IMG/VR virus record: IMGVR_UViG_3300033407_000030
Span: 1-45,853 of that record
Strand: one strand, 5' to 3'
DNA: 45,853 nt
DNA from: a virus
Taxonomy: Duplodnaviria; Caudoviricetes
In this document: one piece after another, positions 7,805 to 41,196 of the stretch
How the letters are laid out: every line of letters begins with the position of its first letter
Position numbering within the stretch: the stretch's first letter is position 1
Translations under genes and position numbers: made by a program
The notes under the pieces: generated by a model
The model's database searches: none
Told to the model about the DNA's origin: nothing
Seen by the model: only the letters and a program-made list of their open reading frames with translations

Positions 7805-7938
7805 TAGGGAGTGGCTGCTTGACTAAGGGATACAAGCAATAGCGTCTGCGCGGCGGCTTCCACAGCTTGGCTGTGGGGGCGACGATCACCGCGCATTGCG
7901 TAGTATGGGCCCCTAAGTCAATCACGCCTAGCGTACTC
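7805..7938 (+). repeat. Dispersed structured element, copy E1
   Basis: TAGGGAGTGGCT...TTGACTAAGGG...TAGCGT...CGGCTTCC hairpin...TGGGCCCCTAAGTCAA..ACGCCTAGCGTAC. Same layout as five other copies. Confidence 0.85.
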
Positions 7939-8068
7939 ATTTAGGAACTTTGACTAAAACAACCGCTAGCCAAAGCACAGAAGGGATTGAAATAATATAC
8001 CCCCATGTAGCCATTATCTTAAGAGTAGCCCGTAATGGAGCTAGTGATTTGTCATCCAGATCATTCAT
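7937..8068 (-). CDS. Small membrane protein (43 aa), not in the ORF track
   Basis: MNDLDDKSLAPLRATLKIMATWGYIISIPSVLWLAVVLVKVPK. Start overlaps the upstream stop (TAATG). One hydrophobic segment. Confidence 0.55.
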   Translation of the reverse strand: MNDLDDKSLAPLRATLKIMATWGYIISIPSVLWLAVVLVKVPK

Positions 8069-8289
8069 TATCTAATTCCTTTAGCCCTGCAAATATAGTT
8101 CTCTTTATGGGGGAACCAATAAGTATCACAATAGCATATGCGCTTCTTATTCTCCTTTGTCTTACGGTAGGTATCTACTGAGTAGGTTCCTCCACATGCG
8201 CAGAGAGGTTCTACATTATAGTGGGTTGGGTCTATTCTGAATGTCTTCCTTCCTTTGCACTTCTTGCATCTACAAGGAAATCTCTTCAT
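8068..8289 (-). CDS. Small basic Cys-rich (zinc-binding) protein
   Basis: CRCKKC, CACGG and CYC...H...C motifs. RBS AGGAG. Confidence 0.7.
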   Translation of the reverse strand: MKRFPCRCKKCKGRKTFRIDPTHYNVEPLCACGGTYSVDTYRKTKENKKRICYCDTYWFPHKENYICRAKGIR

Positions 8290-8298
8290 ACTAAGCTC

Positions 8299-8415
8299 CT
8301 ATAGTATATCGTAGGATCCGCAATAAAAACAGAAGTGTTTAGGATGATCAGCCACATTCCAACATCTGTTACACTTGCGGCAGTAGCGCTTCCTAACGTA
8401 TAGTGACTTACGCAT
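8299..8415 (-). CDS. Small zinc-ribbon protein (38 aa), not in the ORF track
   Basis: MRKSLYVRKRYCRKCNRCWNVADHPKHFCFYCGSYDIL has two CxxC motifs and fills the gap between neighbours. Confidence 0.6.
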   Translation of the reverse strand: MRKSLYVRKRYCRKCNRCWNVADHPKHFCFYCGSYDIL

Positions 8416-8424
8416 AGCCTTTTC

Positions 8425-8712
8425 CTATTTCACTATACGTAAGATGGGGGTCTTAACCTGCGTTTCTGGTTTAGCTTCTACTCTAATTCTGCTAATGAGC
8501 TCCATAGTCCTTGAGACTATCTCTTCTGGAGTATAGGATACTGGGCACCCCTGCCCCGTAATTTGGATAACCCCTGTATGATCGCCATTATCCCAGAAGT
8601 CAGTCTTGAGTAGTTTGATACCTCCTTCTGCTTGATTAACAATTACGTTAAGCAGCATAAAGATCATCATTAGCTCGTCGTCATTTATATGTTGATTACT
8701 CATAAAGCCCAA
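8425..8712 (-). CDS. Hypothetical protein
   Basis: Tightly packed in the - strand operon. True start may be the second Met (MSNQ). Confidence 0.6.
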   Translation of the reverse strand: MGFMSNQHINDDELMMIFMLLNVIVNQAEGGIKLLKTDFWDNGDHTGVIQITGQGCPVSYTPEEIVSRTMELISRIRVEAKPETQVKTPILRIVK

Positions 8713-9001
8713 ACTCCTTTGCCATTAGCGCATGAATAGCTTCCTGGGTAGGCATACCTCCTACGGTAGATAACGTCCCTTTTATTTTACCATTAACCCA
8801 GAGCTCTAACTCTCCTCCTATTTTATTATGACGCCAGCCAGAGAACTCCTCCTTTTGTAATTCAGTTGCCAGCTTAAAATCAGCATGGTCCGGCCGTTTA
8901 AACTGCTCTGTTTGAATATTACCAGGGTCCCCCATACTAATGAACTTACGTAGAAATTGCTGCTCAAGTTTTTGTTTCGTTGTCTTCGTATCTTCAGACA
9001 T
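8696..9001 (-). CDS. Hypothetical protein
   Basis: RBS GAGGAG upstream. Overlaps both neighbours. Confidence 0.65.
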   Translation of the reverse strand: MSEDTKTTKQKLEQQFLRKFISMGDPGNIQTEQFKRPDHADFKLATELQKEEFSGWRHNKIGGELELWVNGKIKGTLSTVGGMPTQEAIHALMAKEFGLYE

Positions 9002-9161
9002 TAGCCTTCTCCTCTTTTTCCTTTATGTACTTAACCCGCACCATTCGATAAAGTTGTGGAGTCAGGGTAAACCTAAGCATAATATCCTTAGGCGCCTCCT
9101 TGTTATCCATGGCTTCATAGATGGTAGGTAGCATTCTCTTAACACGCAGTGTGATCTTCAT
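8994..9161 (-). CDS. Hypothetical protein (55 aa), not in the ORF track
   Basis: MKITLRVKRMLPTIYEAMDNKEAPKDIMLRFTLTPQLYRMVRVKYIKEKEEKANV. ATGA overlap with the upstream stop. Confidence 0.55.
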   Translation of the reverse strand: MKITLRVKRMLPTIYEAMDNKEAPKDIMLRFTLTPQLYRMVRVKYIKEKEEKANV

Positions 9162-10405
9162 TCCATTTCCTCCAGTTCAAGATAGTCGGATAGGATAAGG
9201 CCATCCCCCCATTCGTCTCTAACTTTATTAATAGCTACAAAACCCTCAGGCTCAACAGCTTTTATTTTACCTGCAAATATTAGACTCTTCATTATCTCAG
9301 TCAGCTCCTGTGGCTTGGTTAGGTCTTTGCCTACTTGCTTCCATAGCGTACGTATGGGAATCGGAGTAGGGGAGCTCGAAAGTATAACCATTATATCTGA
9401 CTGAGTAGCATTGTTCTTTCCTCTGCCAAACTCTCCTAATGCTTTCGGCATTCTATTCTCAGCGAAATGCAATATGGTATTAGCTTCTAGTATATGCCTC
9501 CCTTGCACTTCTATGCTCAGGTCCATAGCTGCTAGAGTCATTGCCACTTTGAGCATGTGGGTATAGCGCCTTCCATTATAATGTTTAAAAGTAAAGTCTG
9601 GAATAGGAGGGTAGTTATGATAAATAGACTTCATAGCTTCATGCGCTTCCTTAGTAATTATGGCCTCCCCTTTTACTTCTTTTATTATAGTTTTAAGGGT
9701 GGTTAATATACCAGTTTCGTATTCCTCTTTTGGCCTTCTAGGAAGATAGTACTTAGAAGATCCTGGCTCAGAGAATACCAGCAACAATCTACTCATGAAG
9801 CCTTGCCCTACTACATCGGGGGGACAGGTTAATGAAAACCCTGTAGGGGTATTACCCGCAAGCAAATTAACAGTAGGCTTAACCACAACTACGTCCTTCC
9901 CATGCAGCTTAGGGTGTTCGTACTTGGCTCTATTGTCCCATAGCTTACCTAGCATAGTTAGGAATTCCTGATTAGCAGGACCTACTAGATCAAGGAACTC
10001 ATCTGCTACTGCATATATATCAGACACCTCCTCAGGCAGTGTGCTATCTAATAGAAACTCTAGATCTATATCTTCCTCGTCTAAAGTAATTCTAGAGCCC
10101 TCTTTTTTAGGCATCATGGAGTGCAAGAACATCTCCTTACTAAGTCTGTCTGCTGCAAACCTGTCATACCCTACCTTCCTAGCTAACTTCTCTACTATGT
10201 TAATGGCACTAGATTTCCTAGCGCCCGCCTCCCCCATAAGCATTATGTATTGACTAGGATAGATATCAGTATGCCCGAAAGGGAAAGAGAATTGCCTGCC
10301 TAGTAGAGCCCCCGTTAGGCTAATCAGGCTCCACCTATGATAGGTCAAAGGCGATTCACTGTCCCCAACGTATTCAAAATACCTCTGGAAGAATGAATCG
10401 TCCAT
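9158..10405 (-). CDS. AAA+ ATPase, putative replicative helicase (DUF3987/MCM-like) with probable C-terminal winged helix
   Basis: Walker A GEAGARKS, Walker B YAVADEF, arginine-finger-like GFMSRLL. Adjacent to the DNA polymerase. Confidence 0.7.
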   Translation of the reverse strand: MDDSFFQRYFEYVGDSESPLTYHRWSLISLTGALLGRQFSFPFGHTDIYPSQYIMLMGEAGARKSSAINIVEKLARKVGYDRFAADRLSKEMFLHSMMPKKEGSRITLDEEDIDLEFLLDSTLPEEVSDIYAVADEFLDLVGPANQEFLTMLGKLWDNRAKYEHPKLHGKDVVVVKPTVNLLAGNTPTGFSLTCPPDVVGQGFMSRLLLVFSEPGSSKYYLPRRPKEEYETGILTTLKTIIKEVKGEAIITKEAHEAMKSIYHNYPPIPDFTFKHYNGRRYTHMLKVAMTLAAMDLSIEVQGRHILEANTILHFAENRMPKALGEFGRGKNNATQSDIMVILSSSPTPIPIRTLWKQVGKDLTKPQELTEIMKSLIFAGKIKAVEPEGFVAINKVRDEWGDGLILSDYLELEEME

Positions 10406-12817: not shown

Positions 12818-13309
12818 CTATTTTACCAGGCTCCAATCATTGGCAAGCATATCAGACTGCGAAGGTGCCCAACCCGGTTGCCATTGCCCCTGTGCATTGA
12901 ACATAGCAAAGTACCCCTGACTGTCGAGGGGAGTATTTTCACCGATCCACTTTGCGGTGCGATCGTTTACTTTACGATCCGTGTCTTGCGTACTAAAAGG
13001 GGGGAGATACATAGGAGCCATAAAGACCACAAACATATTCTTTCCGTTCCAGCCAGCCCGCGCTAGCTTCTTACCCTCTTTCAAAAAGTGTATAGCATCC
13101 CCAAAGTTGAGGTTTCGCATGCTACGATAGCCTTCAAAGAATACGTCCTTCGGACACCAACTGGTGTGCCCTGTATTATAAGTTACCAATACACCGGAAT
13201 GGTGATCCGGAACTATGTTATTAAAGATAGATATCCCTTCGGTGCTATTATACTCACCCAGTGTCATACCTTCGTACGCTTCTACTATTGTAGTTCCAAT
13301 ATATTGCAT
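12818..13309 (-). CDS. DUF2829 / Tad2-like nucleotide-sponge domain fused to an N-terminal YIGT...PKDVF domain
   Basis: NFGDAIHFLKEGKKLARAGWNGKNMF and WAPSQSDMLANDW are hallmarks of DUF2829 (Tad2 family). Confidence 0.8.
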   Translation of the reverse strand: MQYIGTTIVEAYEGMTLGEYNSTEGISIFNNIVPDHHSGVLVTYNTGHTSWCPKDVFFEGYRSMRNLNFGDAIHFLKEGKKLARAGWNGKNMFVVFMAPMYLPPFSTQDTDRKVNDRTAKWIGENTPLDSQGYFAMFNAQGQWQPGWAPSQSDMLANDWSLVK

Positions 13310-13342
13310 TAGGGAGGACCTTATATTAGGAGGCTAGAAACT

Positions 13343-13373
13343 AAAAGGGGCGACCGACTAAGCCGATCGCCCC
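13343..13373 (-). terminator. Rho-independent terminator
   Basis: Minus strand GGGGCGATCGGC-TTA-GTCGGTCGCCCC followed by TTTT. Confidence 0.8.
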
Positions 13374-13695
13374 AGTAAGTATTTTAATGCCGTACTCAGG
13401 GCTCGCCGCGATGCTAGTTTATGAACTAGCCAGGCCGTAGGCAACGGTTGCCAGGAAGGTAAGGGGAGTAGAAAAAGTCGGAGCTCTTATCTGGAGCATA
13501 TAGCCACCTCTTTTCGCCTAATTGCGATGCGGACCCTTGCAAGGGTTGGTTAAGGGACGCTAGTAGTTTACCGACATACTCAGGTCTGTATCGAACCCCA
13601 GGTCATAGGGCGGGTCTCCGTATAAGTACAAGGCTTATGCTAGAGTGCTCATTGCGACGCTAAACTGAGCAGGGCGGGCGCCAGGGGGTAAACTA
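13343..13695 (-). ncRNA. Candidate structured non-coding RNA or long structured 3' UTR
   Basis: About 350 nt without a track ORF in a dense genome, with many hairpins, a perfect 9-bp long-range stem (13564-13572 with 13687-13695) and a terminator at the end. Confidence 0.5.
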
Positions 13696-13696
13696 A

Positions 13697-16595: not shown

Positions 16596-16600
16596 TTTAA

Positions 16601-16802: not shown

Positions 16803-16939
16803 GTTACGTTAGGCATGGTTGACAGTAGATACTATGGCAGGTCGTTTAGCGGCAAGGCAGGCCCCAAAGCTGAAGCTTTGGAAGCCCGCTCGCTAAACGC
16901 TACGACGCAGCCATTCTACTGTCAATCAGCCACTCCACA
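16803..16939 (-). repeat. Dispersed structured element, copy E2
   Basis: Minus strand GGAGTGGCT..TTGACAGTAGA...TAGCGT...GGCTTCCAAAGCTTCAGCTTTGG...TCTACTGTCAA..ATGCCTAACGTAAC. Perfect 11-bp outer stem. Confidence 0.85.
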
Positions 16940-17377
16940 GCGCAGCTCCTCGCGAACCTGCATTAGTATACTACCCAGCTGGTTAAGCCCTACACCCTGG
17001 CACACCCCCCAATACGTATCCCCCCATGGGTTCGTCTCCTCTAGGTAGGCATCCCCTGTCGCAAGGAGCTTTAGCTTAAGGTGATAATGCTGGGTGAACT
17101 TAGCGCGCACGGCGCCTTCCATTATATCATATTTCTCGGCATCCCAGCTTACGCGAACATCGCATTCCCGGCCAAGCTTTTTAGCCAGCGCAGCACTAGC
17201 CGCATTCAGTATCCTAGCCTTCTGTGCTAGATTATCAGTCTTGCTAGCCTGATAGATGTGTTCTACTGAGCGCACCCAGTACCCGTGGATCTCAATCTCA
17301 GGGAAGGCGTAGAAGTTGGAAAGGAACCTGTACTCATTTTGAAAGCCTTGTATCTTATTCACCCGCGCTACCCCCAT
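16922..17377 (-). CDS. NADAR family protein (YbiA-like N-glycosidase / ADP-ribosylhydrolase)
   Basis: FLSNFY, SVEHIYQASK, AKKLGR, W...K..IM...VRAKFTQ, LLATGDAYLEE, DTYWG, GLNQLG.ILM.VR. Start may be GTG at 17362. Confidence 0.92.
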   Translation of the reverse strand: MGVARVNKIQGFQNEYRFLSNFYAFPEIEIHGYWVRSVEHIYQASKTDNLAQKARILNAASAALAKKLGRECDVRVSWDAEKYDIMEGAVRAKFTQHYHLKLKLLATGDAYLEETNPWGDTYWGVCQGVGLNQLGSILMQVREELRCGVAD

Positions 17378-24286: not shown

Positions 24287-24922
24287 TTACAGGTCGTCGA
24301 AGGCGTCTTCGTCTTCCTCTTCGTCCATGCAGATGGACAGCATCTTGTCGTAGTACGTAATGGCCGGATCAGGCTGGTCCGCATTGCCAGACTCGGTGAG
24401 CCATTCCGCAAAGCCTTCAAAGTAGGCAGACAGCTTGCTGCGTACTTCGACCGGCTGCATAGCCAGGCCCTTCGGGTTGGCAAAACAGTCAGTGATCAGT
24501 GCGCTGGTGCGGGCCGCCTTGCCAAGAGTACCAACATACTCTTTGAACAGCTTCTTAATCTCACTGATAGCCTTCAGCGCTTCTCCGTTACCACCACCAA
24601 TAGAAGGCTCAGCCAGCGCTGCAAAGGTAGTAGCGATAGAAAGACCGGGCCGGCAGTTGACAGTCTTCGGCATCAATTTGTTGCGGGCGGAAGCAGCAGC
24701 GGCAGCGCGTACTGCATTGACCAGCCAATTGGCCTCATTGGTAGTATACAAAGGCAAGCCTTCGTCGGTGACCAGCGCAGTGCCGGCAGCGTCCTGGGCG
24801 TTGGTAGCGGATGCAATGACGGCTGCCAGCTCATCCAGACCGGGAACGTAAACCTGCACCGCACCGACTTCAACGCGCTTTGTATCTACAGTTTTGGAAA
24901 TGGGGAGGTTGATGATGCTCAT
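24287..24922 (-). CDS. Hypothetical protein with acidic tail, paralogue of 28522..29136
   Basis: Alignable over its full length to the + strand ORF (ARN.L, RPG.SI..T, GGNGEAL, LGKA, CF..PK, FDDL). Has its own promoter and terminator. Confidence 0.8.
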   Translation of the reverse strand: MSIINLPISKTVDTKRVEVGAVQVYVPGLDELAAVIASATNAQDAAGTALVTDEGLPLYTTNEANWLVNAVRAAAAASARNKLMPKTVNCRPGLSIATTFAALAEPSIGGGNGEALKAISEIKKLFKEYVGTLGKAARTSALITDCFANPKGLAMQPVEVRSKLSAYFEGFAEWLTESGNADQPDPAITYYDKMLSICMDEEEDEDAFDDL

Positions 24923-25050: not shown

Positions 25051-25186
25051 GAGTACGCTAGGCGTAATTTACAATGGGCCCCATGCTAAAGGGTCAGCGA
25101 GCTTCAAGCCCCCGGTTCCTACGGAAGCCGATGGCTCTGCGCTGGACGCTACCCTTTGCATCCCATAGTAAATTAGCCACTCCCTA
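25051..25186 (-). repeat. Dispersed structured element, copy E3
   Basis: Minus strand TAGGGAGTGGCTAATTTACTATGGG...TAGCGT...CGGCTTCCGTAGGAACCG...GGGGCCCATTGTAAATTACGCCTAGCGTAC. Confidence 0.85.
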
Positions 25187-25463
25187 TATGCTTTGTTAGT
25201 ACAGTCACCTGCATATCGCAAGGGTCAAGAGCCAATAAATCTACTGCCTGTTCAACAAGAGAAAAAGGATAGCGATAGCCGTAAACCCTTAGCTCTATAC
25301 ACTTATCTCCTACTTGGCATCTATAGTATATCGTATGTTTGTAGCTCTCGGTGAAGTGCATATCGGGGTTCAGTGCACTTAATTCATCTTTCGTCATTCT
25401 AGCTGTCCTCGGCTTCCACGCTAACTTGCTACGCGCAGCTAATAAACTATGGGGAGTGGCCAC
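25173..25463 (-). CDS. Hypothetical protein between elements E3 and E4
   Basis: ORF in the direction of its neighbours. True start is uncertain (possibly MTKDEL). Confidence 0.5.
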   Translation of the reverse strand: MATPHSLLAARSKLAWKPRTARMTKDELSALNPDMHFTESYKHTIYYRCQVGDKCIELRVYGYRYPFSLVEQAVDLLALDPCDMQVTVLTKHIGSG

Positions 25464-25585
25464 TTTACTTAGGGATGGCCTGAGATAGCGTTAAGCGCGT
25501 AGCCGGCTTCCATTTTAATGGAACCGGCCGCAAGCGTCGCTCATCTAGGCCATGGGCCCCTAAGTACAAGTGCGCCTAGCGTACC
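25450..25585 (+). repeat. Dispersed structured element, copy E4
   Basis: TGGGGAGTGGCCACTTTACTTAGGG...TAGCGT...CCGGCTTCCATTTTAATGGAACCGG...TGGGCCCCTAAGTACAAGTGCGCCTAGCGTAC. Confidence 0.85.
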
Positions 25586-27005: not shown

Positions 27006-27059
27006 GTTAGTATACCCTCGCTTTGTTAAACTATGAAAAAATATGACTTCATTTAACAT

Positions 27060-27650
27060 TTTACTTCACTTCAAGTTTTACTTCACTTTGGATTTTTACT
27101 TACCTTTCTTCCTTACTTGATCTTCTTGATTGACTTGACTATGACTTAACTAATGTTTTCGCTGGTGCCCCGTCCCTCCTCCCCCTGAATGTGGTGTTAC
27201 CCATCCCTGTAGTCTGCCCTCCTCCTAGTAGTCTAGTACCCTACTGCTCTAGTACCCTCCCTCTGCCCTACTACCCTATGTGCAGCATACTACCCTCCTC
27301 ATCTGCATAAGGCTCTTGGTGGTATTATCATGGGGGGTTCAGTTTTTTATAATTATAAATATTAATATATTTACTATACCCCCCTATACCCTACTATATA
27401 CCCGGTAGGGGGCTATGCTAGGAGGGGGCTACCCCTAAGGGGGAGGGTAGTAGAAGGGGGAGTGTACTACAGGGCTATGCTAGTGTGGGGGACTGGGGAT
27501 ATCCATATTTGGGGGGAGGGGGGAGCCCCCCGTTCGAAAAACATTAGTCATGTAATAGTCAAGTAAACTTTAGTCAACAAGTAAATTAATGTCATGTAAT
27601 AGTGAAGTGATTTTTCAAGTGAAGTGAAGTCAATTTTCAAGTTAAGTCAT
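27060..27650. repeat. Large imperfect inverted repeat with AT-rich centre, candidate replication origin or control region
   Basis: ACTTGACTAT 27133 pairs with ATAGTCAAGT 27555, ACTAATGTTTTCG 27149 with CGAAAAACATTAGT 27535, and CCCTGTAGT 27205 with ACTACAGGG 27466. ACTTCACTT repeats mirror AAGTGAAGT repeats. AT-rich core at 27343-27378. Confidence 0.7.
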
Positions 27651-27681
27651 CCTCTTTCCTTATACTAACTTGCCCTGCGCA

Positions 27682-28444: not shown

Positions 28445-28521
28445 TCTAACTAGCTAAGCATGGGCCACGGCGCCGCCCCAAGCGCGCCTTCTATAGGGCA
28501 TTGCCCACTGGAGTATACGAC

Positions 28522-29136
28522 ATGACTAGACTGAACCTGACCACTACCCTTGCTATCACTAAGACCGTAGGCAAGAAGCGCCAGCCCGTGGGTACTGTAA
28601 CCGTGCCCATGCCTGATCTTGAGCAGATTAAGGTGCTGCTTGCATCTGACCCGCTGGAGCGCGTAAGCGTAGGCGACGACGGCATCCCTGAATACGCTGG
28701 CGACTTTGCTAGCTGGCTTATGCGCTGCGTTCGAGGTGCGGTGCAAGCTACGGCGCGCAACCGTCTGGTGACTGGCACTACCCAGCTGCGTCCTGGCGCT
28801 AGTATCCCTGCCACAATGGCAGACGTGACCGCGCCGCCAGTAATGGGGGGCAACGGGGAAGCGCTGGCGCAGTTGACTGCGCTCAAGAAGCAGTTCAAAG
28901 CCTACGCCGATGCGCTGGGCAAGGCCCCTAAGACTACTATGCTGATAGTCGAATGCTTCAACTCCCCTAAGGCGTTCCTGCTGCAGCCGCAGGAAGTGCA
29001 GGCTAAGATTGAACCGTACTTTGCCGGGTTCCTCGACTCGGTGGACAACGCGGCGCTAAGCAGCACACAGCTAGCCTACTTCGACAAGTTCGTAGGGGGC
29101 GACGACGATGAGGGTGACCTGTTCGACGATCTATAA
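28522..29136 (+). CDS. Hypothetical protein with acidic tail, paralogue of 24287..24922
   Basis: Start moved to ATG 28522 behind GGAG. Ends GDDDEGDLFDDL. Confidence 0.8.
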   Translation: MTRLNLTTTLAITKTVGKKRQPVGTVTVPMPDLEQIKVLLASDPLERVSVGDDGIPEYAGDFASWLMRCVRGAVQATARNRLVTGTTQLRPGASIPATMADVTAPPVMGGNGEALAQLTALKKQFKAYADALGKAPKTTMLIVECFNSPKAFLLQPQEVQAKIEPYFAGFLDSVDNAALSSTQLAYFDKFVGGDDDEGDLFDDL

Positions 29137-31915: not shown

Positions 31916-33862
31916 ATGGCTGAATATACCATTCACCAGGATACCCAAAAGACTCTAGTAGAATTAGTTAACTCCACCTTTGAGCATGCGACTACTCATC
32001 TTGAGGAATTGCATACTAAGATGGAAGTAGTAGATGTAATGTATGCAAGATACACTGCACTCAAAGATCAGACGCGCCACAATGGGGATGGTACGGATGC
32101 AGTACAGAAGGCTATGCAGCAATGTAGTGGGGAGTTCCGAGATCTGGAGAGCACCTTTGTAGACGTCAACATCCCATTGATAGTATCCCAGGTAGACACC
32201 GCAGTTGCATACCTAGCTGAACTATATCTCAGTGGAAGTCCTATCTTCCCAGTGGTCAGTGACCCGCAGTTTCGTAAGACTGCGGAATACATTGAGACTC
32301 TAGTGGACAAATACTCCACCATCTCTGGTTACCCTAAAGAGCTCTTGATGTTCTTTAAGGACGCCATGAAGTATAATTACGCTCCTATCAACACAGAGTG
32401 GGATGTAATACAGGAGTGGGAGAATAAACTAGATAACTCGAACTTAGATAATGCAGGGGAGTATCAAACTCGGCAGATCTTTGTAGGGTATAACAAGATA
32501 CGCAGGCTGGATCCGTATAACACCATACATGATATGTCAGTGCTCCCAGGTGACAATCATAAAGACGGGGAGTATGCAGGTTACATTTACCTATCCACTC
32601 CTAGCAATCTAAGTGCTCTGATAACTCGCCTCAGTGCTATGGACCTGGGGTATCTGCATAACACAGGCAAAGTATTTGATGCCATGCAGAATCAGAGGGA
32701 TCACTCGTACTGGAGAGAGAAGCCTCAAATATCCCATTACGTTACTACAGAGACAGAGTTCTCCTGGGAGCGTTACTTCGAGATGGCGGCCTCACACAAA
32801 AGAGGCAAGACCGAAATATACAAGGATCTGTTTGAAGTAAAGGTATTGTATCGTAGGGTTAGGCCTAAAGCTTACGGGCTCTTATCCCCTGAGACTAAAG
32901 GTATGAAAGAGCATGAGTATCGCATCTACAAGTTCATAATAGTGAATGAGATCCTTCTCTATGTGCAGCCAGTCTACACAGCATACAACTCTCTACCTAT
33001 TATGATTGGTAGCCCAATGGAGGATGGCTTCGGGCTGCAGACCCAGTCTATGGCAGAATCTACAGTGCCTATGCAGAAAGCGGTCAGCGCCATGACTAAC
33101 ATCCGCTTTCATAGTGCGCGCCGCGCCATATCGGACAGAGCGATATACGACGCGACCGCCATAGCCCCAGAAGATGTCAACGACGCTAACCCTAGCGCTA
33201 AGATAGCCGTCCAGACTAACTCCCTGACGAAGGGGAGGCTAGCGGATATGTACTACTCTATCCCATACGATTCGAGGGGTACTGACCATGTTATCGGTGA
33301 CGCCCTGACTATAGCCGGTTGGACTAACGAGCTGAATGGGCTTAATCGGGCGCAGCAGGGGCAGTTCCAGAAAGGAAATAAAACCAGGGAGGAGTTTAGT
33401 ACTATCATGTCTAATGCTGACATGAGGCAGCGGCTACCGGCCATCATGCTAGAATTCCAGATCTTTATGCCACTAAAGCAGATGATGAAGATGAACATCT
33501 CACGCTTTAGTGAGGCGCATAAGCTACGCTCACTTACCTCTGGTAAAGAAGTAGAGCTGGACCTTAACACCCTGCGTAGTGTGATGTTCGACTTCCGTAT
33601 GGGGGATGGCTACACCCCTAGTAGTAAGCTGGCTTCTACAGATCTTATTGCTGCTAGTATGCAATTGATACAAAGTTCTGAGATACTGCAACAGCAGTTT
33701 GGCCCCGCCTTGCCTAATATCTTTGCCCATCTGATGACCTTGGGCGGCGTAAAGGGCATTGATAATTATATGACTCAACCAGAAGGAACCCCTACTGATG
33801 CAACTACCCCCACGCAGCCTACTCAGCCTCAAACAGGGGCTGGACCAACTGGACCGGTCTGA
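31916..33862 (+). CDS. Portal protein
   Basis: 648 aa directly after TerL. IRRLDPYN and G......QG....NKT..E patterns typical of podovirus portals, with a Q/P-rich tail. Confidence 0.85.
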   Translation: MAEYTIHQDTQKTLVELVNSTFEHATTHLEELHTKMEVVDVMYARYTALKDQTRHNGDGTDAVQKAMQQCSGEFRDLESTFVDVNIPLIVSQVDTAVAYLAELYLSGSPIFPVVSDPQFRKTAEYIETLVDKYSTISGYPKELLMFFKDAMKYNYAPINTEWDVIQEWENKLDNSNLDNAGEYQTRQIFVGYNKIRRLDPYNTIHDMSVLPGDNHKDGEYAGYIYLSTPSNLSALITRLSAMDLGYLHNTGKVFDAMQNQRDHSYWREKPQISHYVTTETEFSWERYFEMAASHKRGKTEIYKDLFEVKVLYRRVRPKAYGLLSPETKGMKEHEYRIYKFIIVNEILLYVQPVYTAYNSLPIMIGSPMEDGFGLQTQSMAESTVPMQKAVSAMTNIRFHSARRAISDRAIYDATAIAPEDVNDANPSAKIAVQTNSLTKGRLADMYYSIPYDSRGTDHVIGDALTIAGWTNELNGLNRAQQGQFQKGNKTREEFSTIMSNADMRQRLPAIMLEFQIFMPLKQMMKMNISRFSEAHKLRSLTSGKEVELDLNTLRSVMFDFRMGDGYTPSSKLASTDLIAASMQLIQSSEILQQQFGPALPNIFAHLMTLGGVKGIDNYMTQPEGTPTDATTPTQPTQPQTGAGPTGPV

Positions 33863-34117: not shown

Positions 34118-34252
34118 GTGGAACGGCTAATTGAAGTTGGGAGGCAAGTCGTAGCCTGCGCGTGGCCGGGTTCCAAAGCTTCAGCTTTGGCCCGGACATT
34201 AGCCACGCGCGACGCAGCCTGGGGCCCAACCTCAATTATGCCTAGTGTAACC
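34118..34252 (+). repeat. Dispersed structured element, copy E5 (most divergent ends)
   Basis: GTGGAACGGCTAATTGAAGTTGGG...TTCCAAAGCTTCAGCTTTGG (identical to the E2 apex)...TGGGGCCCAACCTCAATTATGCCTAGTGTAAC. Confidence 0.8.
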
Positions 34253-34274
34253 AACTAACAGCGTAAACATAAAG

Positions 34275-35060
34275 GTGATTAAGATGAGTAAATTAGTAAC
34301 GGCTCTCCCAGTGCAGCAGTGGCAGGCTGGGGGTTTCATGTCCAGATTTATGCCAGGTGGTCAACCCCAGCAGGGGCAGCATCAGCCTACTGACCCACAG
34401 GGGCAACCGGGGCAGCCGACCTCGCAACAGACAGGTGCTCCTACTGAGCCACCGCAGCCTACTGCACCAGAAAACCCTCTTGATGCTTTCTCTGGTTTGT
34501 TTGATAATACAGAAGGTGGGGAAGCAGAAAACCTGCCTCCTGCTTTTACGTTATCCCAGGATACGCTTACTGAAGTAGCCAATGGAATGGACTTCACTAG
34601 AGGCGTAACGGCAGAGGACCTGCAGGCAGTACAGGGTGGAGACACTGAGGCGCTTCTTAAACTCATCCAGCACGTAGGGCGTCAGAGCTATATGAACGCT
34701 GTACAGCACAATGCAGCACTGACGGATAAGTATGTCAATGCCCGTTCAGATTACGACCGGCAGAATGTAGCTCCGGCAGTAAGAGAGCAGTTGGTTGGGC
34801 AGGAAATGGAAAAGGGTTACTCTAAGGAAGCTTGGAGTAACCCAGTAGTCAAAGGCCAATTAGTGGATGTGGCCAAACGACTGCATAAGCGTTACCCTGA
34901 CGCGAATCCTTCTTGGATCGCAGAGCAGTCTAAGCAGTACCTGCAGCAAGTGACTGCACAGGCGCTAGGCTTAGATATAACATCCCTGCAGAACCCGCAG
35001 CAGAAGGGCCAGCCTGGGCAAGTCGCTGAGGTTGATTGGGAAAAGGAACTTGGTCTGTAA
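34275..35060 (+). CDS. Putative capsid scaffolding protein
   Basis: P/Q-rich N-terminus and helical body, directly before the major capsid gene. Start uncertain. Confidence 0.7.
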   Translation: MIKMSKLVTALPVQQWQAGGFMSRFMPGGQPQQGQHQPTDPQGQPGQPTSQQTGAPTEPPQPTAPENPLDAFSGLFDNTEGGEAENLPPAFTLSQDTLTEVANGMDFTRGVTAEDLQAVQGGDTEALLKLIQHVGRQSYMNAVQHNAALTDKYVNARSDYDRQNVAPAVREQLVGQEMEKGYSKEAWSNPVVKGQLVDVAKRLHKRYPDANPSWIAEQSKQYLQQVTAQALGLDITSLQNPQQKGQPGQVAEVDWEKELGL

Positions 35061-35091
35061 TTTAATCAACCACAGTTAGAGGAATGCTATT

Positions 35092-36342
35092 ATGTCATTC
35101 GAAAAAGGCATGTTTACAGTCTACATGAACCCTGATGAACTGAACCAGAAATCGTTCAGTACTCATATCATGCGGCTGTTCCCCAATGGTAGTGCACCGC
35201 TGTTTGCGCTGACCGGAGGTACTGGTAGTACTCGTGCTAAGTCTATTAAGCATGGGTACTTTTCTAAGACCTGGACATTTGCCAAGCTAACCATCAACGA
35301 TGGCGCTGGCTACGCAGCTGGAGATGAAACCCTTACTGTAGATTCTACTGCAGGGGTAGTAGCTGGCCAGGTTTATCATCTTACTCGTACGCGCGAGAAC
35401 ATCCGAGTTACCTCGGTAACGTCCAGTACTGTAGTAGTAGTATCACGTTCCTTTGGTCGTGTAGCGGCTGCTGCTATCGTGGATGATGACGAGTTCATTC
35501 ACGTTGGTACCGCGCACGAACAGGGGTCGGCTCGTCCTACTGCACGCAGCCAGACTACAGTATGGCGCGAGAACTTCACTCAGATCTTCCGTAATGCCTG
35601 GGCTATCACTGACACTGCCCGTGCCTCTTACGCCGAGGCTGGGTATAGTAACATCGCAGAGAACAAGCGTGACAACGCTATGCACCACGCTCAGGACATG
35701 GAAGCTGCAATGTTCTTCGGCCAGGCTAGCCTGGATACTGTTAACACTGGCGGCAATGGTAAGCCTATTTCGTCCACTCAGGGCGTAATTGACGCCATGC
35801 TGGAATACGCGCCGAGCCATGTAGTAGCTGCGGCGGCCACTACCAACTACGATGAGCTGGAAGATATGCTGGTGCCGGCCTTTGAATTCTCCACTAACAT
35901 GGGGAACGCAAAGGAACGTATGGCCTTTACGGGTTCTGCTGGTATGAAGGTTATCCAGCAGATCGGGCGTGCGCAGACCTACGATGTTAACATCAGCTTG
36001 GCTGAGAATAAGTTCGGTATGGTATTCAATTCCATTCGTACTTATAAAGGGTGGGTGCATGTAGTAGAGCACCCTCTGTTCAACGGGCTGGGTAGCGATA
36101 TCTCGTCCTCTCTTGTAGTACTGGATAAGCCTGCTATTAAGCTGGCTTACCTGGACGGACGAGCCACTCGGCCTGAAACCTATGGACTTGGGGGTACGGC
36201 ACAGCAGGATGCTGGCGCGGTAGCTGGAGACTGGAACGGGGGTGTCGATGCTCAAGGCGGGTCTGTTACGTCCGAGATGGCAGTAGAATTCCTCAACCCC
36301 TTCTCTGGCGTGGTCATTACTGGCCTGACCGCCGGTAACTAA
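35092..36342 (+). CDS. Major capsid protein (SU10/DUF5309-like HK97 fold)
   Basis: NFTQIFRNAWAIT, DMEAAMFFG, TQGV, VVEHPLF, SEMAVE. Follows the scaffold and is followed by a terminator. Confidence 0.88.
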   Translation: MSFEKGMFTVYMNPDELNQKSFSTHIMRLFPNGSAPLFALTGGTGSTRAKSIKHGYFSKTWTFAKLTINDGAGYAAGDETLTVDSTAGVVAGQVYHLTRTRENIRVTSVTSSTVVVVSRSFGRVAAAAIVDDDEFIHVGTAHEQGSARPTARSQTTVWRENFTQIFRNAWAITDTARASYAEAGYSNIAENKRDNAMHHAQDMEAAMFFGQASLDTVNTGGNGKPISSTQGVIDAMLEYAPSHVVAAAATTNYDELEDMLVPAFEFSTNMGNAKERMAFTGSAGMKVIQQIGRAQTYDVNISLAENKFGMVFNSIRTYKGWVHVVEHPLFNGLGSDISSSLVVLDKPAIKLAYLDGRATRPETYGLGGTAQQDAGAVAGDWNGGVDAQGGSVTSEMAVEFLNPFSGVVITGLTAGN

Positions 36343-36356
36343 TACGGGGAGCCTTT

Positions 36357-36384
36357 AAGGGGCCCTATGGGTCCCTTCTTTTTA
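36357..36384 (+). terminator. Rho-independent terminator after the capsid gene
   Basis: AAGGGGCCC-TAT-GGGTCCCTT followed by CTTTTT. Confidence 0.7.
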
Positions 36385-36400
36385 ATTTGGAGACACTGTA

Positions 36401-36832
36401 ATGACTAACACTCTTGCTAGTAAACTGGCTGCTCAAGCGCGTGACCCCATTGTGCGCACCCAGGCAGAAGCCAGCGGTAAGGAAGGCGCCAATATGCCAG
36501 ATATCCTGCCGGATGCTACTACTCCTGAAGCTCCCGCTAACCCGGCAGAGGCAGGGGCAGCCCATAGTACTATCGTGACTGGGACTGTAGGCTTCGGTCA
36601 GGGTATGCAAAATGCCGGTAACGCACAAGGCAGAGCACGCACTAGCCGTAGAATGCCAGGCTATTACTCTGTGCATATGGGGCGGATCTACCTTAAAGGC
36701 CGTGTGATTGAATGGCCTATCCATAGCCCTCTGAACCCGTCTCCGGACGATACAGATCTTATCGCTTACTTGGATCACCAAGTAAAGTGCAAGCGTGCAG
36801 AGTACGTTAAACCAGAAGACACTGAGGAGTAA
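36401..36832 (+). CDS. Hypothetical virion-associated protein
   Basis: RBS GGAG, in the structural operon. Confidence 0.65.
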   Translation: MTNTLASKLAAQARDPIVRTQAEASGKEGANMPDILPDATTPEAPANPAEAGAAHSTIVTGTVGFGQGMQNAGNAQGRARTSRRMPGYYSVHMGRIYLKGRVIEWPIHSPLNPSPDDTDLIAYLDHQVKCKRAEYVKPEDTEE

Positions 36833-36837
36833 CTACC

Positions 36838-37413
36838 ATGGCCACCTTTGACGATATGATCAAGGAGGTGGTAGTAAGGACTGGGCGTGGAAATAAGGGG
36901 AGTCTGATACGCAGTTGTGTAAATGATGCAGTAGCTAGACTCTCCTCTTATCATAAGTTTAAGTATGATCTGCAATATCTGGAGTACCCTATTCCACTAG
37001 CAGATCAGAATAACCTTATCCATCTCATTCCCTACTCTTCCCTCCTCCGTTATCGTGCTGCCGATGCTGTTCAAGGCGGCTCAGATTACGAGATTCTAGT
37101 TAAAGTACCTTCAGCCAAGGCCACGTGCCGTGGAGTAGCCAGGAAGGGCACCTACTACGAAAGCGGGCTAGGTATTCATGCTTCTCTGTGGTATACAACT
37201 GATATCATAAAGGTCTCTTATTATGATAAGCCTGCCCGTATCACTGAGCTTACAGAGGAGATTTGGCACTTCGATCATGCTTTCCATATTATCTCAGGAT
37301 TAGCCTCAGCTTATGTATATCGAGAAGCTGGTGAGACTGATGAATACGACAGGCTATTGGCTATGGCATTACGCGACATGGAAGAGTTCCGGAGAGATGT
37401 AGGAGGTATGTGA
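36838..37413 (+). CDS. Putative head-tail adaptor
   Basis: 191 aa with an MATFDDMIKEV-type N-terminal helix and C-terminal helices. Size and position match podovirus adaptors. Confidence 0.6.
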   Translation: MATFDDMIKEVVVRTGRGNKGSLIRSCVNDAVARLSSYHKFKYDLQYLEYPIPLADQNNLIHLIPYSSLLRYRAADAVQGGSDYEILVKVPSAKATCRGVARKGTYYESGLGIHASLWYTTDIIKVSYYDKPARITELTEEIWHFDHAFHIISGLASAYVYREAGETDEYDRLLAMALRDMEEFRRDVGGM

Positions 37414-38180
37414 TGCAGCTTAATTGGCGAAGGGAGGAGTCAGGTACTTCAGCTGTGCGCGCACTATTGAATACTGCAGAAGGGCAAGCATTCATACAGA
37501 GTATAATTGGTTCTGTGGCTGATACTTATCCTTTATGGTGGATACAGCCCGATACTGTATCTACTATTCCTAGCCCTAGTATGTGGACTATAGCCAGTGA
37601 GTTCAGATTGGATGGGGAGATTATAATAGAAGAGCAAGCTGTCTTAGCTGTTATTGACGGGGTTGAGGCACATGCTGGGCTTTTACGTGGGTATCTTACT
37701 AATATATCTAATGCCATCGGTCCTGAGAACAGTACTGTAGCTGCGACAGATGTAGACACTACTTTGCCTCTTAACGGGAACGGTGCGAACAACGTAGAAT
37801 GGACTTCAGTAACTGAAGGCAAATTAAAGTTTGATGACACTTTTAATTCTAATAATGGAGGTATCATTATTGATCAACTGGATCCTCAGACCGAGATTAC
37901 CTTTAGGGTGTCTGTTACTCAATTGACAGCAGGCCAATCAATTGCTGTTATTAAGGTAGCGCTTGTGCCTGACAAAACCCTACCTACTTCTAATTTAATC
38001 CTAATAGAAAGCGGGGAGCTTACTTTTAAGCAAAACACACGGCACCACGTGGAGTTGTCGGCCTTCCGCGGTACGGCACAGGCCATTTACATACAGATCC
38101 ATAACACTAGCCCCTCTCATAATTATCAATTAGATGGTGCTAAGTTCATGGCGGTTGAAAAAATACCAAGCCTTAATTAA
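37410..38180 (+). CDS. Hypothetical virion protein with a beta-rich C-terminal domain
   Basis: GTGA overlap with the adaptor gene, upstream of the tail fibre. Confidence 0.6.
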   Translation: MMQLNWRREESGTSAVRALLNTAEGQAFIQSIIGSVADTYPLWWIQPDTVSTIPSPSMWTIASEFRLDGEIIIEEQAVLAVIDGVEAHAGLLRGYLTNISNAIGPENSTVAATDVDTTLPLNGNGANNVEWTSVTEGKLKFDDTFNSNNGGIIIDQLDPQTEITFRVSVTQLTAGQSIAVIKVALVPDKTLPTSNLILIESGELTFKQNTRHHVELSAFRGTAQAIYIQIHNTSPSHNYQLDGAKFMAVEKIPSLN

Positions 38181-38197
38181 AGAGAAAAGGAGCTATT

Positions 38198-39898
38198 ATG
38201 GGCATTTTGACTCTTAAACAAGAAGATGGAGCTCCTACTCCTTCTGTAGGATATGCTAAATTAACCTTTCGTGATGGGCTTGTATACTTCATGAAGGAGG
38301 ATGGGAGCGAGATATTACTCGACGGATCCCCTTTCTTATCCATCCCTGCTTTTAACGGAGGTACATCAGGTGTAGATGCCCCATTTACTGTAGATAGCAC
38401 ATTCCTTGTTACAAATCTTAATGCTGAATTTTTAGGAAGCAAGGATCTAACCACGGTGGAATCCGAATATCAAGCTTACACCGATTCTGAGATTACTACA
38501 TTAATTGGGACTGCTGGTGTTACTAGAGATACCCTTGGTGAGTTGTCTGATGCTATTGATACTAAGTTGGACGCAACAGCAAAAGCTGATGATTCAGAGT
38601 TACTCGATGGTTTAGATTCTCTACAATTCCTCAGAAGTGATGTTGATGATACCTTCGATGGTAACCTTGATGTTACAGGCAACCTTGATGTTCAGGGTTA
38701 CATTAGTGGTCCTGCTGTATTTACAATTGATCCCGCTGGTGTTGGTGATAATACAGGTAAGGTTGTAATTGCTGGTGATCTTCAAGTTGATGGAACAACT
38801 ACTACTATTAACTCAACCACTTTAGAAGTTACTGATTTAACTATTACTGTTGCAAAAGATGCTACGATTCCTTCTGAGGCGAATGGTGCGGGTATTGAAG
38901 TTGATGGTGCATCTGCTTCTTTCACATATCATTCAGCGTCTGACTCATGGAGAATTAATAAAAGATTACAGGATGATCTTGGGAATATCTATTTCAAAGA
39001 TGGTGATAGTTTAGATGCTGATACATTAGATGGTGTACAAGGTGCTAACTATATGCGCCTTGATAAGGATAACAAGTTCTCTGATAACGATTTCCTTATT
39101 CAAGCAAATACCACAGACGGCTCAGACACTTCCCTACTTAGAATAGCAGGTGGTGGTTCAGCTCTCACTGCTAACAGTGGTGCTCGTATTCAATTAGCCG
39201 GTAATGAAAATATCGAATTTACCGGAAGGGCTCAAATAATATCAGGTAATGTTGCTGGTGGTAATATCGAGCTATGTACTGTAGGTTCTCAACATATATT
39301 ATTTCAAACTAATAATACCGAAAGAGCCCGTATAAATTCTGCAGGTTCCTTACTTCTCGGGACCACCAATACAGAGCTTCATGTTAATACTACTGATTTT
39401 GGTTTTGCTTATTTAAATGGAAACGGCGCTCAGAGACTTGCTACAAATCATCTCTCAACTGCCTTGATTACTAATAAAGTAAATTATGTCTCTGGTGCTA
39501 CAAACCATATCCAATTTCGTGAGAACGGCGCGATACGTGGCTCTATTACTTCCGACGGTTCCTCTACTTCCTACAACACCAGCTCCGACTACCGGCTCAA
39601 GGAGAACGTTACTGATCTCACCGGTGCTACTGACCGCCTGACTCAGATACCCGTGCACCGCTTTAACTTCATTACCAATCCTGACCGTACCGTTGACGGC
39701 TTCCTGGCTCACGAGGTTCAGGCTGTAATACCGGAAGCAGTAACTGGCGAAAAGGATGCGGTCGATGAGGACGGTAACCCCGAGTACCAGGCGATTGACC
39801 AGAGCAAGCTGGTCCCTCTTCTGACTGCAGCGCTGCAGGAAGCGCTGACTGAAATCAATAACCTCAAGACCCGCGTCACTGCACTGGAGACCGTATAA
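38198..39898 (+). CDS. Tail fibre/spike with C-terminal peptidase S74 intramolecular chaperone
   Basis: ADTLDG-type repeats, GDLQVDGTTTTINST, ERARINSAG, TSSDYRLKENV, GFLAHEVQAVIPEAV, LTAALQE coiled coil. Confidence 0.88.
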   Translation: MGILTLKQEDGAPTPSVGYAKLTFRDGLVYFMKEDGSEILLDGSPFLSIPAFNGGTSGVDAPFTVDSTFLVTNLNAEFLGSKDLTTVESEYQAYTDSEITTLIGTAGVTRDTLGELSDAIDTKLDATAKADDSELLDGLDSLQFLRSDVDDTFDGNLDVTGNLDVQGYISGPAVFTIDPAGVGDNTGKVVIAGDLQVDGTTTTINSTTLEVTDLTITVAKDATIPSEANGAGIEVDGASASFTYHSASDSWRINKRLQDDLGNIYFKDGDSLDADTLDGVQGANYMRLDKDNKFSDNDFLIQANTTDGSDTSLLRIAGGGSALTANSGARIQLAGNENIEFTGRAQIISGNVAGGNIELCTVGSQHILFQTNNTERARINSAGSLLLGTTNTELHVNTTDFGFAYLNGNGAQRLATNHLSTALITNKVNYVSGATNHIQFRENGAIRGSITSDGSSTSYNTSSDYRLKENVTDLTGATDRLTQIPVHRFNFITNPDRTVDGFLAHEVQAVIPEAVTGEKDAVDEDGNPEYQAIDQSKLVPLLTAALQEALTEINNLKTRVTALETV

Positions 39899-40080
39899 TG
39901 AGTAAGGCAAGGGATATATCGAAGGCTGTCAACGGGGCCGTCCTGGCGAACCTGAACGCGGATACACTTGATGGAGTGCAAGGATCTGGTTACCTATTGA
40001 TTAATTCTGACTCATCCGCAGATTATGGTCTGGTAGGTACTAAGTTCTTCGCTCAAGAAAAGATATCAGCACTCACTTAA
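39898..40080 (+). CDS. Short tail-fibre-like ORF, possible remnant
   Basis: MSKARDI start and NLNADTLDGVQG repeat shared with the upstream fibre. Only 60 aa. Confidence 0.5.
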   Translation: MSKARDISKAVNGAVLANLNADTLDGVQGSGYLLINSDSSADYGLVGTKFFAQEKISALT

Positions 40081-40092
40081 AAGGAATTAGGC

Positions 40093-40401
40093 ATGACGGA
40101 GACTGAATTTCGCTTTAGGCTGGAAGCTTTAGAGAAAGACGTATCTGAGATTAGGCAGGAGGCTAAAGAGTTTCGAAAAGTAGTATACGAACGCCTTAAT
40201 AAGATGGAGGTTAGCATGCAACGCATTCCTTCCACAGAGGAGCTTGACCTTATTAAGGCAGCCTCTGCTTACTACAAATCAAAAAAGGAGCTTACCGATA
40301 AGATACTGCATACTTTGATTACTCGCGGTATAGTAGCTACCGCCATCTTCCTTGGCGGCTACGCTCTTTACCATACTTCTAACATCCTTCTGGGGAAGTA
40401 A
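40093..40401 (+). CDS. Putative holin/antiholin-like membrane protein
   Basis: N-terminal coiled coil plus one C-terminal hydrophobic helix, directly before the endolysin. Confidence 0.55.
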   Translation: MTETEFRFRLEALEKDVSEIRQEAKEFRKVVYERLNKMEVSMQRIPSTEELDLIKAASAYYKSKKELTDKILHTLITRGIVATAIFLGGYALYHTSNILLGK

Positions 40402-40402
40402 T

Positions 40403-40846
40403 ATGACTATTGTAAAGCCGTGCCCCATCATCGCTCCGGATGGGACTATCCTATTTACTACTAAAGAACTAGGGCAGCGCACTACCCAGGAAGGTATCCT
40501 GGCCCCAGGGTTTGCCGTGTGGTTAGCTGAGCTCAGGCTTCGGTTTGACCGTCCTATGATAGTGAACTCCTGTTGCCGGTCTGCCGGTTATAATGAACAG
40601 GTAGGTGGACATGCAAAGAGCTTGCATGTATATGATGAGCCGTATCATCCTACTGGTGGTAGCTGTGCCATTGATATCCGAACTTCACATCTTACTAAGG
40701 AGAAAGCTGAGCTCTACAGGCGCCTGCTTAAGGAACTTGCCTGGGAATCTGGTTGGTCTATTGGCCTTTATACTAATTTTATTCATCTTGATCGGCGGGT
40801 TGACTACACCAATAAAGCCCAAGCCCTATTCAGAGGAGCATACTAA
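40403..40846 (+). CDS. Endolysin, peptidase M15 family
   Basis: VNSCCRS...YNEQVGG..KSLH, AIDI, FIHLD zinc-ligand motifs. Start moved to ATG 40403. Confidence 0.88.
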   Translation: MTIVKPCPIIAPDGTILFTTKELGQRTTQEGILAPGFAVWLAELRLRFDRPMIVNSCCRSAGYNEQVGGHAKSLHVYDEPYHPTGGSCAIDIRTSHLTKEKAELYRRLLKELAWESGWSIGLYTNFIHLDRRVDYTNKAQALFRGAY

Positions 40847-40847
40847 A

Positions 40848-41024
40848 ATGAAATGGTTGAAAGCAAGGTTGCAGGAGCGCTCTACTTATACAGGTATTGC
40901 GCTCCTTTTAGGTTTAGCAGGCGTCACAGTGCCTGTTGAAGCCGTGCAGTTGGTCGGCAGCGCGTTGCTCGCTATTCTAGGAGCGGTTGAGATGCTACGC
41001 ACGGAGCGGGCTTCCGACAAGTAA
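40848..41024 (+). CDS. Putative holin (58 aa, two TM segments)
   Basis: MKWLKARLQERSTYTGIALLLGLAGVTVPVEAVQLVGSALLAILGAVEMLRTERASDK. RBS GAGGAG. This is the 3' part of track ORF 40605..41024. Confidence 0.75.
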   Translation: MKWLKARLQERSTYTGIALLLGLAGVTVPVEAVQLVGSALLAILGAVEMLRTERASDK

Positions 41025-41061
41025 CGGCTTCCATCTAACCCACTTCCAAGGTTTAATGTAA

Positions 41062-41196
41062 TGGGGAGTGGCTGCTTTCTAAAGGGAGGTGTACTATAGC
41101 GTCCAGCCGCAGCCCATAGCTTGCCTGCAAGCCTGGGCAGTGAGCTGCGCCTGTAGTACAAACCTGGGCCCCTTTGTAAAGCACGTCCAGCGTACC
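41062..41196 (+). repeat. Dispersed structured element, copy E6
   Basis: TGGGGAGTGGCTGCTTTCTAAAGGG...TAGCGTCCAGC...GCTTGC-CT-GCAAGC...TGGGCCCCTTTGTAAAGCACGTCCAGCGTAC. Confidence 0.85.

Follow-up and report, generated by a model that had tools for sequence, protein, structure and literature searches.

A dispersed family of covarying rod elements in a PaMx41-related podophage, with a foot that follows the T7 RNase III site pattern

The virus record IMGVR_UViG_3300033407_000030 of IMG/VR, analysed over its full 45,853 bases (the window), carries six dispersed elements, E1 to E6, that fold into long, irregular rods. What kind of element are they, and what could they do for the phage? A conserved fold, a conserved position and a foot that matches the pattern of bacteriophage T7 ribonuclease III (RNase III) sites are directly observed. 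On this sequence evidence, the likeliest reading is that the rods form an RNA cassette cut by RNase III; they would then be an undescribed variant, present in several copies, of the phage RNase III processing signals.

The positions, strands, lengths (134-137 nt) and motifs given for the six elements in the original prediction were all confirmed. Their locations, with the predicted RNase III cuts and the neighbouring open reading frames (ORFs), are as follows:

7805 to 7938, plus strand: E1 rod, just 3' of the terminator closing the right-arm operon; predicted cuts after 7823 and 7918
16803 to 16939, minus strand: E2 rod, containing the stop codon of the NADAR gene, 23 nt 5' of a 59-aa ORF; predicted cuts after 16921 and 16822
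25051 to 25186, minus strand: E3 rod, containing the stop codon of a 74-aa ORF, 129 nt 5' of a phrog_15550 gene; predicted cuts after 25168 and 25071
25450 to 25585, plus strand: E4 rod, antisense to both flanking genes; predicted cuts after 25468 and 25565
34118 to 34252, plus strand: E5 rod, at the shared portal-to-scaffold site, 32 nt 5' of the ATG of the putative scaffold gene; predicted cuts after 34135 and 34232
41062 to 41196, plus strand: E6 rod, 3' of the lysis genes and 21 nt 5' of a 138-aa ORF; predicted cuts after 41080 and 41177

On these strands, RNA folding z-scores for E1 to E6 range from -2.3 to -6.5. In an alignment of the six copies under a hand-set structure, 89.8% of cells are paired and 22 of the 36 pairs carry changes on both sides; none of 500 shuffles reaches the observed covariation value, and slid controls pair at 29-45%. 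An unfiltered covariance-model search of the window recovers exactly these six copies at 110.7-126.2 bits, with the next best hit at 12.9.

The element opens with the leader GGAGU and a 3-bp GGC/GCC foot; past a bulge of one base on the 3' side come a 14-bp stem, whose last pairs are GGG/CCC, and a 4-nt 3' bulge. This last bulge (GGGS; AGUA in E2) sits beside an A-U pair, and these two features replace the loop of a single A facing TGGG described originally. Above it stand a second helix, an internal loop, an irregular upper helix and a 7-bp apical hairpin; the tail reads UAGYGUA. In all ten known members (the six copies and four homologues described below), an invariant UAGC opens the internal loop at 28-30 nt from the foot, and the rods of all ten measure 116-124 nt. 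The earlier argument that G-U wobbles reveal the folding strand is weak in the window copies (5 G-U against 4 A-C), and what stands of it is a trend over the ten sequences (15 against 6, p=0.08). GGCTTCC was rejected as an element-specific motif, being enriched genome-wide. GCTTCC(A)/GGAAGC is over-represented on both window strands, also against a synonymous-codon shuffle (GCTTCCA in genes: 26 versus 11.3).

The expectation that related phages carry the element was borne out. A covariance model built from the six window copies matches PaMx41 (NC_055711 7098-7240), an L011/L012-type phage, L036 and L113 (L numbers are our handles for related loci). Each of these homologues is a single copy sitting in the portal-to-scaffold interval. 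They represent PaMx41-type phages plus three further phage lineages, and all lie on the coding strand just 3' of the portal gene, which is the site of E5. The PaMx41 element stretch is 98-100% identical across 16 named records, and the element is single-copy both in PaMx41 and in the complete record G001. Across the ten distinct sequences (31-65% identity), 27 of 36 pairs show changes on both sides and 94% of cells are paired. Together with the constant rod length, the covariation among the six copies and among the ten sequences supports the claim of a selected single-strand structure with fixed length and conserved loops. A search of 32 more related records, of which 16 are at least 90% complete, gave no member of family A, as the element is called here. 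Because the homologues all lie at the E5 site and none was found in these 32 records, the portal-to-scaffold site is taken as the shared and probably ancestral position; the six-fold expansion is seen only in the window phage. The capsid tree, a quick tree only, leaves the monophyly of family A undecided.

Wider searches added few members. A strict two-motif pattern scan of IMG/VR gave no match beyond the window phage, and a looser pattern for the 5' half had 9 matches in viruses, 17 in metagenomes and 11 in bacterial genomes. Scoring 24 metagenome or genome loci with the model yielded four members (three of L011 type, plus L113); locus L119 scored 18 bits, shows no homology to window proteins and was discarded, being taken for a chance palindrome. 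When the E3-E4 region and one family B rod (see below) were compared by BLASTN with 50,697 named phage records, chance matches alone came back. In keeping with the original prediction, the window elements and two further sets of 11 and 7 loci have no Rfam match at the gathering threshold or with a significant E-value, and ARAGORN reports no tRNA or transfer-messenger RNA gene in the window. No description of the element was found in the published literature searched, and the available passages of the PaMx41 preprints do not mention it. The readable supplementary files of PMC10690425 (10,000 candidate viral RNAs) hold no match; its alignment files lay outside the search, and a prior listing there is possible.

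Six dispersed copies in both orientations, patchy among relatives, could also point to a selfish mobile repeat of miniature size, or to hairpins that grew through slips in replication. The elements lack the target-site duplications and near-identical copies of a miniature inverted-repeat transposable element: no target-site duplication was found at any of them, and the window copies are only 37-65% identical to one another, with compensatory change. The single copy differs less between PaMx41 and G001 (75% identity) than does the DNA of the flanking core genes for portal, capsid and terminase (~67%). The 11 pattern matches in bacterial species genomes contain no credible family member, a weak test since the pattern fits window-type members only. 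Such a selfish origin appears very improbable.

The window represents a near-complete ~46-kb podophage, kin of the Pseudomonas phages PaMx41 and PaP2. Its nearest named relatives are Polaromonas phage Tiera and the Pseudomonas phages PaMx41, PaP2 and 119X (capsid identity 47-49%), and near-identical phage copies occur in IMG/VR and in soil and sediment DNA runs; the 24 runs listed as carrying it include no RNA data set, which bears on expression neither way. Annotation of 48 ORFs against Pfam and PHROGs, which left many without annotation, gave an SU10-type portal and capsid, terminase, DNA polymerase A, a RecD-like helicase, a Sak4-like annealase, and NADAR and Tad2-like domains. Minus-strand genes run from ~27,060 to 8,070 and plus-strand genes from ~27,990 round to 7,750. 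The features that frame the rods are:

7762 to 7790, plus strand: intrinsic-terminator-like hairpin, 5' of E1
16922 to 17377, minus strand: NADAR-domain gene, ending within E2
25173 to 25397, minus strand: 74-aa ORF in the variable segment, with no homologue but itself
25188 to 25450, strand not applicable: variable segment, 263 nt long here, separating E3 from E4, whose 5' ends face each other
31916 to 33862, plus strand: portal gene (SU10-type), 5' of the shared site
34275 to 36342, plus strand: putative scaffold gene (by position; phrog_16263) and major capsid gene (SU10_MCP), 3' of E5

E2, E3, E5, E6 and all single-copy homologues are sense to the surrounding genes, E1 follows a terminator, and E4 is antisense. 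A start codon lies 9-32 nt past the end of the E2, E5, E6, PaMx41 and L036 rods; E1 and E4 are retained without a sense gene following. At L006:7227-7245 (PaMx41) and L036:1080-1097, the rod is directly followed by a small hairpin in which the ribosome-binding site of the following gene is covered.

For comparison with the foot, the regions before genes 0.3, 0.5, 1, 1.1, 1.3, 4.7, 6.5 and 18.5 of the T7 record were folded; these eight hairpins we take to be RNase III sites, with presumed cut positions. In the chosen register they have G at -11 (8/8), C at -6 (8/8), U at -5 (8/8), U at -4 (7/8) and A at -2 (6/8). On the 5' arm of family A, the same register gives U-A pairs at -5 and -4 in all ten members, A at -2 in nine, G at -11 in eight and C at -6 in six. 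The 3' arm, read at the offset of a 2-nt overhang, has G at -11 in ten of ten (mostly in the bulge), C at -6 in nine, and an A-U or U-A pair at -5 in all six window copies and 6/10 overall. Because these three features are kept at that offset, the conserved GGG/CCC and the G-rich bulge may be read as the second half of an RNase III dimer footprint. Canonical UA/UG distal-box pairs are absent from family A. A six-position profile made from T7 alone picks the foot register in family A (column-shuffle p=0.035); in family B, which is unrelated but shares the slot, it likewise picks a box (p=0.012). A gapped 12-position profile places five of the six window copies in the top 0.2% of positions, and the two arms in PaMx41 are similar to the two strands of the hairpin that precedes T7 gene 1.1. 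The statement that the element cannot be matched to anything known was too strong: its lower ~22 bp follow the T7 RNase III positional pattern on both arms. A count of 'paired NUUKAY' motifs (15/20 versus 2.6 expected) was not used, the motif having been partly read off these elements.

The foot also agrees with published properties of the enzyme (papers are cited throughout from excerpts of their text). RNase III needs about two helical turns of (quasi-)continuous double-stranded RNA around the cut (PMC1540722), and the 17-bp foot with its stacked helices provides them. At in vivo cut sites, a very strong A-U/U-A preference is described at the Q157 contact and a G preference at the H27 contact, the latter setting the 11-nt distance, and the positions between the cuts are paired (PMC6212723). 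The letter labels of that paper would map to -5 and -11. An A-U preference in the proximal box and a G preference ~11 nt from the cut agree with both sources (PMC1540722, PMC6212723). The two positions between the predicted cuts in the rods are paired, and most members have a C-G there.

Several points weigh against this reading of the foot. The T7 record prints no RNase III features, and both the sites and their cuts are our assumption. The T7 register was set by eye, its sole check being the U-C pair at proximal-box position 4 of R1.1 in PMC1540722. A nine-position T7 profile misses the family A foot (p=0.51), and on the gapped 12-position profile E5 reaches only the top 10% of window positions. 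PaMx41 and L036 have no G at -11 on the 5' arm, and three homologues have C-G at position -5 of the 3' arm. Four members (E1, E2, E5 and L113) have G-C at -3. The family members share ancestry, so their position counts are not independent. Support from the T7 pattern for RNase III is good but not conclusive, because the members are kin and the eye, not a program, first spotted the register; cleavage of the rods by this enzyme appears quite probable.

The G-C pairs at -3 also bear on another role for the same foot. A G-C pair next to the scissile bond is a catalytic antideterminant in vitro, allowing binding without cleavage (PMC1540722), and the recognition positions are invariant. The rods could then act as a sponge that binds RNase III, or another double-stranded-RNA-binding host protein, resists cleavage and titrates it in infection, with six copies raising the dosage. 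The remaining six of ten members have U-A at -3, and the paired positions between the cuts are as PMC6212723 has for in vivo cut sites. Titration of this kind is quite improbable.

If cleavage occurs, the sequence of events may be outlined. The rod would be transcribed within the phage mRNA, and host RNase III would cut both arms of its foot, splitting the transcript before the next gene block. For E2, E5, E6, PaMx41 and L036, the new 5' end would fall a few tens of bases before the next start codon. The double cut would release a hairpin of 95-102 nt in all ten members (roughly 97 nt); the predicted ends in PaMx41 are ~7116 and ~7217. The fixed length and the invariant UAGC loop lie outside the RNase III footprint, which suggests a second partner. 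The upper ~97-nt hairpin, the six-fold expansion and the antisense E4 are not accounted for by RNase III. Because of the fixed length, the UAGC loop, the accessory slot described below and the retention of E1 and E4, the hairpin itself may be the product and have a ligand. Given cleavage, a function for the released hairpin is about as probable as the lack of one; the likeliest would be binding a host or phage protein. The whole chain, a rod in phage mRNA cut twice by host RNase III to release a hairpin that acts through its UAGC loop, is the favoured reading, held tentatively and at somewhat below an even chance.

The rods might instead be purely cis-acting RNase III signals, as in T7, whose cut tunes the stability or translation of flanking genes while the upper hairpin positions, regulates or stabilises the site. 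The foot evidence is identical for this explanation. Copies just 5' of start codons, the presence of unrelated rods in the same slot, and the same box in family B all fit it, as does the E4 reverse complement, which folds almost as well as the element strand (-63.5 versus -64.7 kcal/mol). The position of E1 after a terminator is reminiscent of lambda sib. Single-strand cuts would leave stabilising 3' hairpins (PMC3867540). T7 signals likewise consist of several dispersed intergenic hairpins just 5' of genes and share the G-11, C-6, U-5, U-4, A-2 pattern. They are short, however, whereas the family A element is 135 nt and keeps its fixed ~97-nt top and UAGC loop outside the enzyme footprint. 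In family A the box occupies the base of the 5' arm, the cut region is paired and a double cut is predicted, whereas T7 sites have a single cut in an internal loop. Family A further differs in its symmetric second half-site and its one antisense copy, E4, whose unpaired motifs are kept on the strand opposite its operon. The window phage is not T7-like, and most relatives lack the element. The likeness to T7-type processing signals is one of function, with membership in that class predicted, and a purely cis-acting role is on the unlikely side.

Excision of this kind would recall Drosha, an RNase III-family enzyme that frees a defined hairpin from a long, irregular one by cutting it about one turn above its foot (PMC3867540). 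Here the setting is a bacterial host and a phage transcript, and excision is a prediction. In a bolder form, host RNase III would serve a lytic phage family as Drosha-like excisor, the ~97-nt products, encoded in an accessory slot of the late operon, would be trans-acting decoys against a host RNA-binding defence or regulatory protein, the window phage would hold a six-fold amplified RNA gene with diversified stems, and unrelated RNA families would compete for one slot. This extended version is unlikely. No loop-loop pairing emerged, self- and cross-complementarity staying within permutation. A retron mimic, suggested by UAGC after a stem, was not retained, as a single ~60-nt hairpin makes up the enclosed part and the phage encodes no reverse transcriptase.

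Examination of the portal-to-scaffold slot showed that family A is not its only rod. A long rod is present in 16 of 74 related loci, L029 having been left out of 17 gap loci as a contig-edge artefact: family A in four, family B in seven, type C in three, and types D and E in one each. The other 58 loci have no rod there. Positions of the unrelated rods include:

L025:5620-5785, L052:3708-3872, L068:842-995, L069:8793-8950, L070:8788-8948, L080:5172-5332 and L087:1704-1863: family B rods
L042:8772-8945, L043:8775-8916 and L058:208-344: rods of types C, D and E, unrelated, in the same slot

Families B to E are single-copy and have no Rfam match, and families A and B do not cross-match. Family B covaries as well, with both-side changes in 17 of 45 pairs. 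It is an undescribed ~160-nt rod of the portal-downstream slot, with a short side hairpin, a GNNA apical loop and, on its 3' arm, two invariant U-rich boxes ~21 nt apart. In other loci the slot holds optional genes (dNMP kinase, GIY-YIG nuclease, M15 peptidase, unknown ORFs), and between L067 and L068, which are 95-97% identical on both sides, it holds a GIY-YIG gene versus an ORF plus a family B rod. Given the patchy presence of rods, these optional genes and the L067/L068 swap, the rods behave as accessory cargo of the slot.

A location beside head genes raises the possibility of a packaging RNA like the prohead RNA of phi29. Both are bulged helices of ~120 nt whose fold is conserved at low identity in a head-assembly context (PMC5066667), and the single copies sit between portal and scaffold. 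Unlike that RNA as described in the excerpted text, family A has no three-way junction or interlocking loops, consistent with the absence of complementary loops above permutation, and is not universal in its phage family, 58 of 74 relatives having no rod at the slot. The window phage encodes its own small and large terminase genes. A prohead-type role is the least credible of the explanations weighed.

The favoured reading places the rod in RNA, and the strand evidence bears on this. Under RNA parameters, the element-sense strand is the more stable in 19 of 20 rods (random windows: 175/300), and the late-mRNA strand carries all 14 single-copy rods tested. The window copies are nearly strand-symmetric, with a slight G-U excess. 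Further observations pull the other way. DNA parameters also favour the element-sense strand, in 16/20 rods; the asymmetry fixes the strand and not the molecule, so that RNA and single-stranded DNA are not separated. E4 is antisense to its operon, and no sigma-70-like promoter precedes it. A sigma-70 scan gave no promoter-like site over E1 to E5 (E6 lay outside the scanned ranges). Among 23 genomes, no gene family tracks the rods by co-occurrence as a partner gene would. One candidate partner, at 36401-36832, was rejected as a diverged universal post-capsid gene, and looking up the 1806-, 211-, 371- and 265-aa proteins in atlas, PDB and fold resources gave no useful information (model predicted local distance difference test, 41).

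DNA-level evidence comes from the E3-E4 segment. In contigs of sequencing runs X11 and X8, which come from different studies, 48 other letters stand in place of the 263 nt separating E3 and E4. The joints are at 25187 and 25451, the 5' edges of the two elements, both of which stay in place. Both alleles coexist in X8 (depth 8.8 and 6.9); run X12 has a contig starting at 25451 after six unmatched letters, and run X13 has no joint. A swap at element edges weighs against a pure RNA-in-mRNA model. It fits an explanation in which the rods are folded single-stranded DNA junctions, akin to attC, REPIN or PeSL (promoter early stem-loop) elements, that promote exchange of small gene cassettes. The stop codons inside E2 and E3, the L067/L068 difference of an ORF versus an ORF plus rod, and the orientation of E4, which would require no promoter, point the same way. 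Yet no tyrosine, serine or HUH recombinase was found among the 48 ORFs by Pfam and PHROGs or among 20 re-scanned; many ORFs are unannotated and a host enzyme is possible. Both elements remain in the variant, unlike cassette excision; the other genomes are single-copy; and blocks of single-nucleotide polymorphisms among four strains of the window phage do not begin at elements. Simple conservation of the islands on either side would likewise be enough to delimit a swapped spacer. We read the swap as a secondary property of conserved repeats, and DNA junctions as an improbable primary role.

The resemblance to such DNA elements is partial. With attC and repetitive extragenic palindromic (REP/REPIN) sequences, the rods share conserved structure over variable sequence, fixed bulges, strand asymmetry and stop codons inside the element. 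They differ in that the window has no integrase or RAYT-like gene, the core boxes are out of attC order, and the stems covary instead of being copied. The PeSL of T4-type phages are likewise repeated intergenic elements beside variable ORFs, and the swapped segment of the window, with a rod at either edge, resembles the shuffling that they mediate. As the excerpted text has them, they are short terminators in ~50 copies (PMC2839356); the window has six long covarying rods, without a sigma-70 consensus in E1 to E5.

Should only the cleavage step hold, T7-style RNase III processing would extend to a different podophage family, and the elements would form a natural mutational series for the recognition rules of the enzyme. 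A functional released hairpin would add a class of phage small RNAs not described before, excised by a double cut and carried in an accessory-gene slot. The element is unannotated in PaMx41, a genetically tractable model for immunity by the cyclic oligonucleotide-based anti-phage signalling system (CBASS), and the prediction is directly testable there. RNA-seq of PaMx41 infection is described in the available text of bioRxiv 10.64898/2026.02.24.707611.

Other features of these genomes were recorded alongside the rods. Candidate counter-defence genes of the window are the Tad2-like domain at 12818-13309 and the NADAR domain at 16922-17377, whose end lies inside E2. The phrog_15550 family, present in 18 of 23 genomes, has paralogues at 24287-24922 (minus) and 28501-29136 (plus), one near each arm start. 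Inverted AAGTGA-rich repeats at 27035-27088 and 27605-27658 mark the starts of both divergent arms and lie on either side of a probable genome end near 27200-27253. A structured gene-free region of ~390 nt (13310-13696, minus strand), with a terminator at its end, gave no homologue among related genomes. In PaMx41, a near-perfect 104-nt hairpin between gp54 and gp55 (L006:42480-42583), not found in other genomes, is unrelated to family A.

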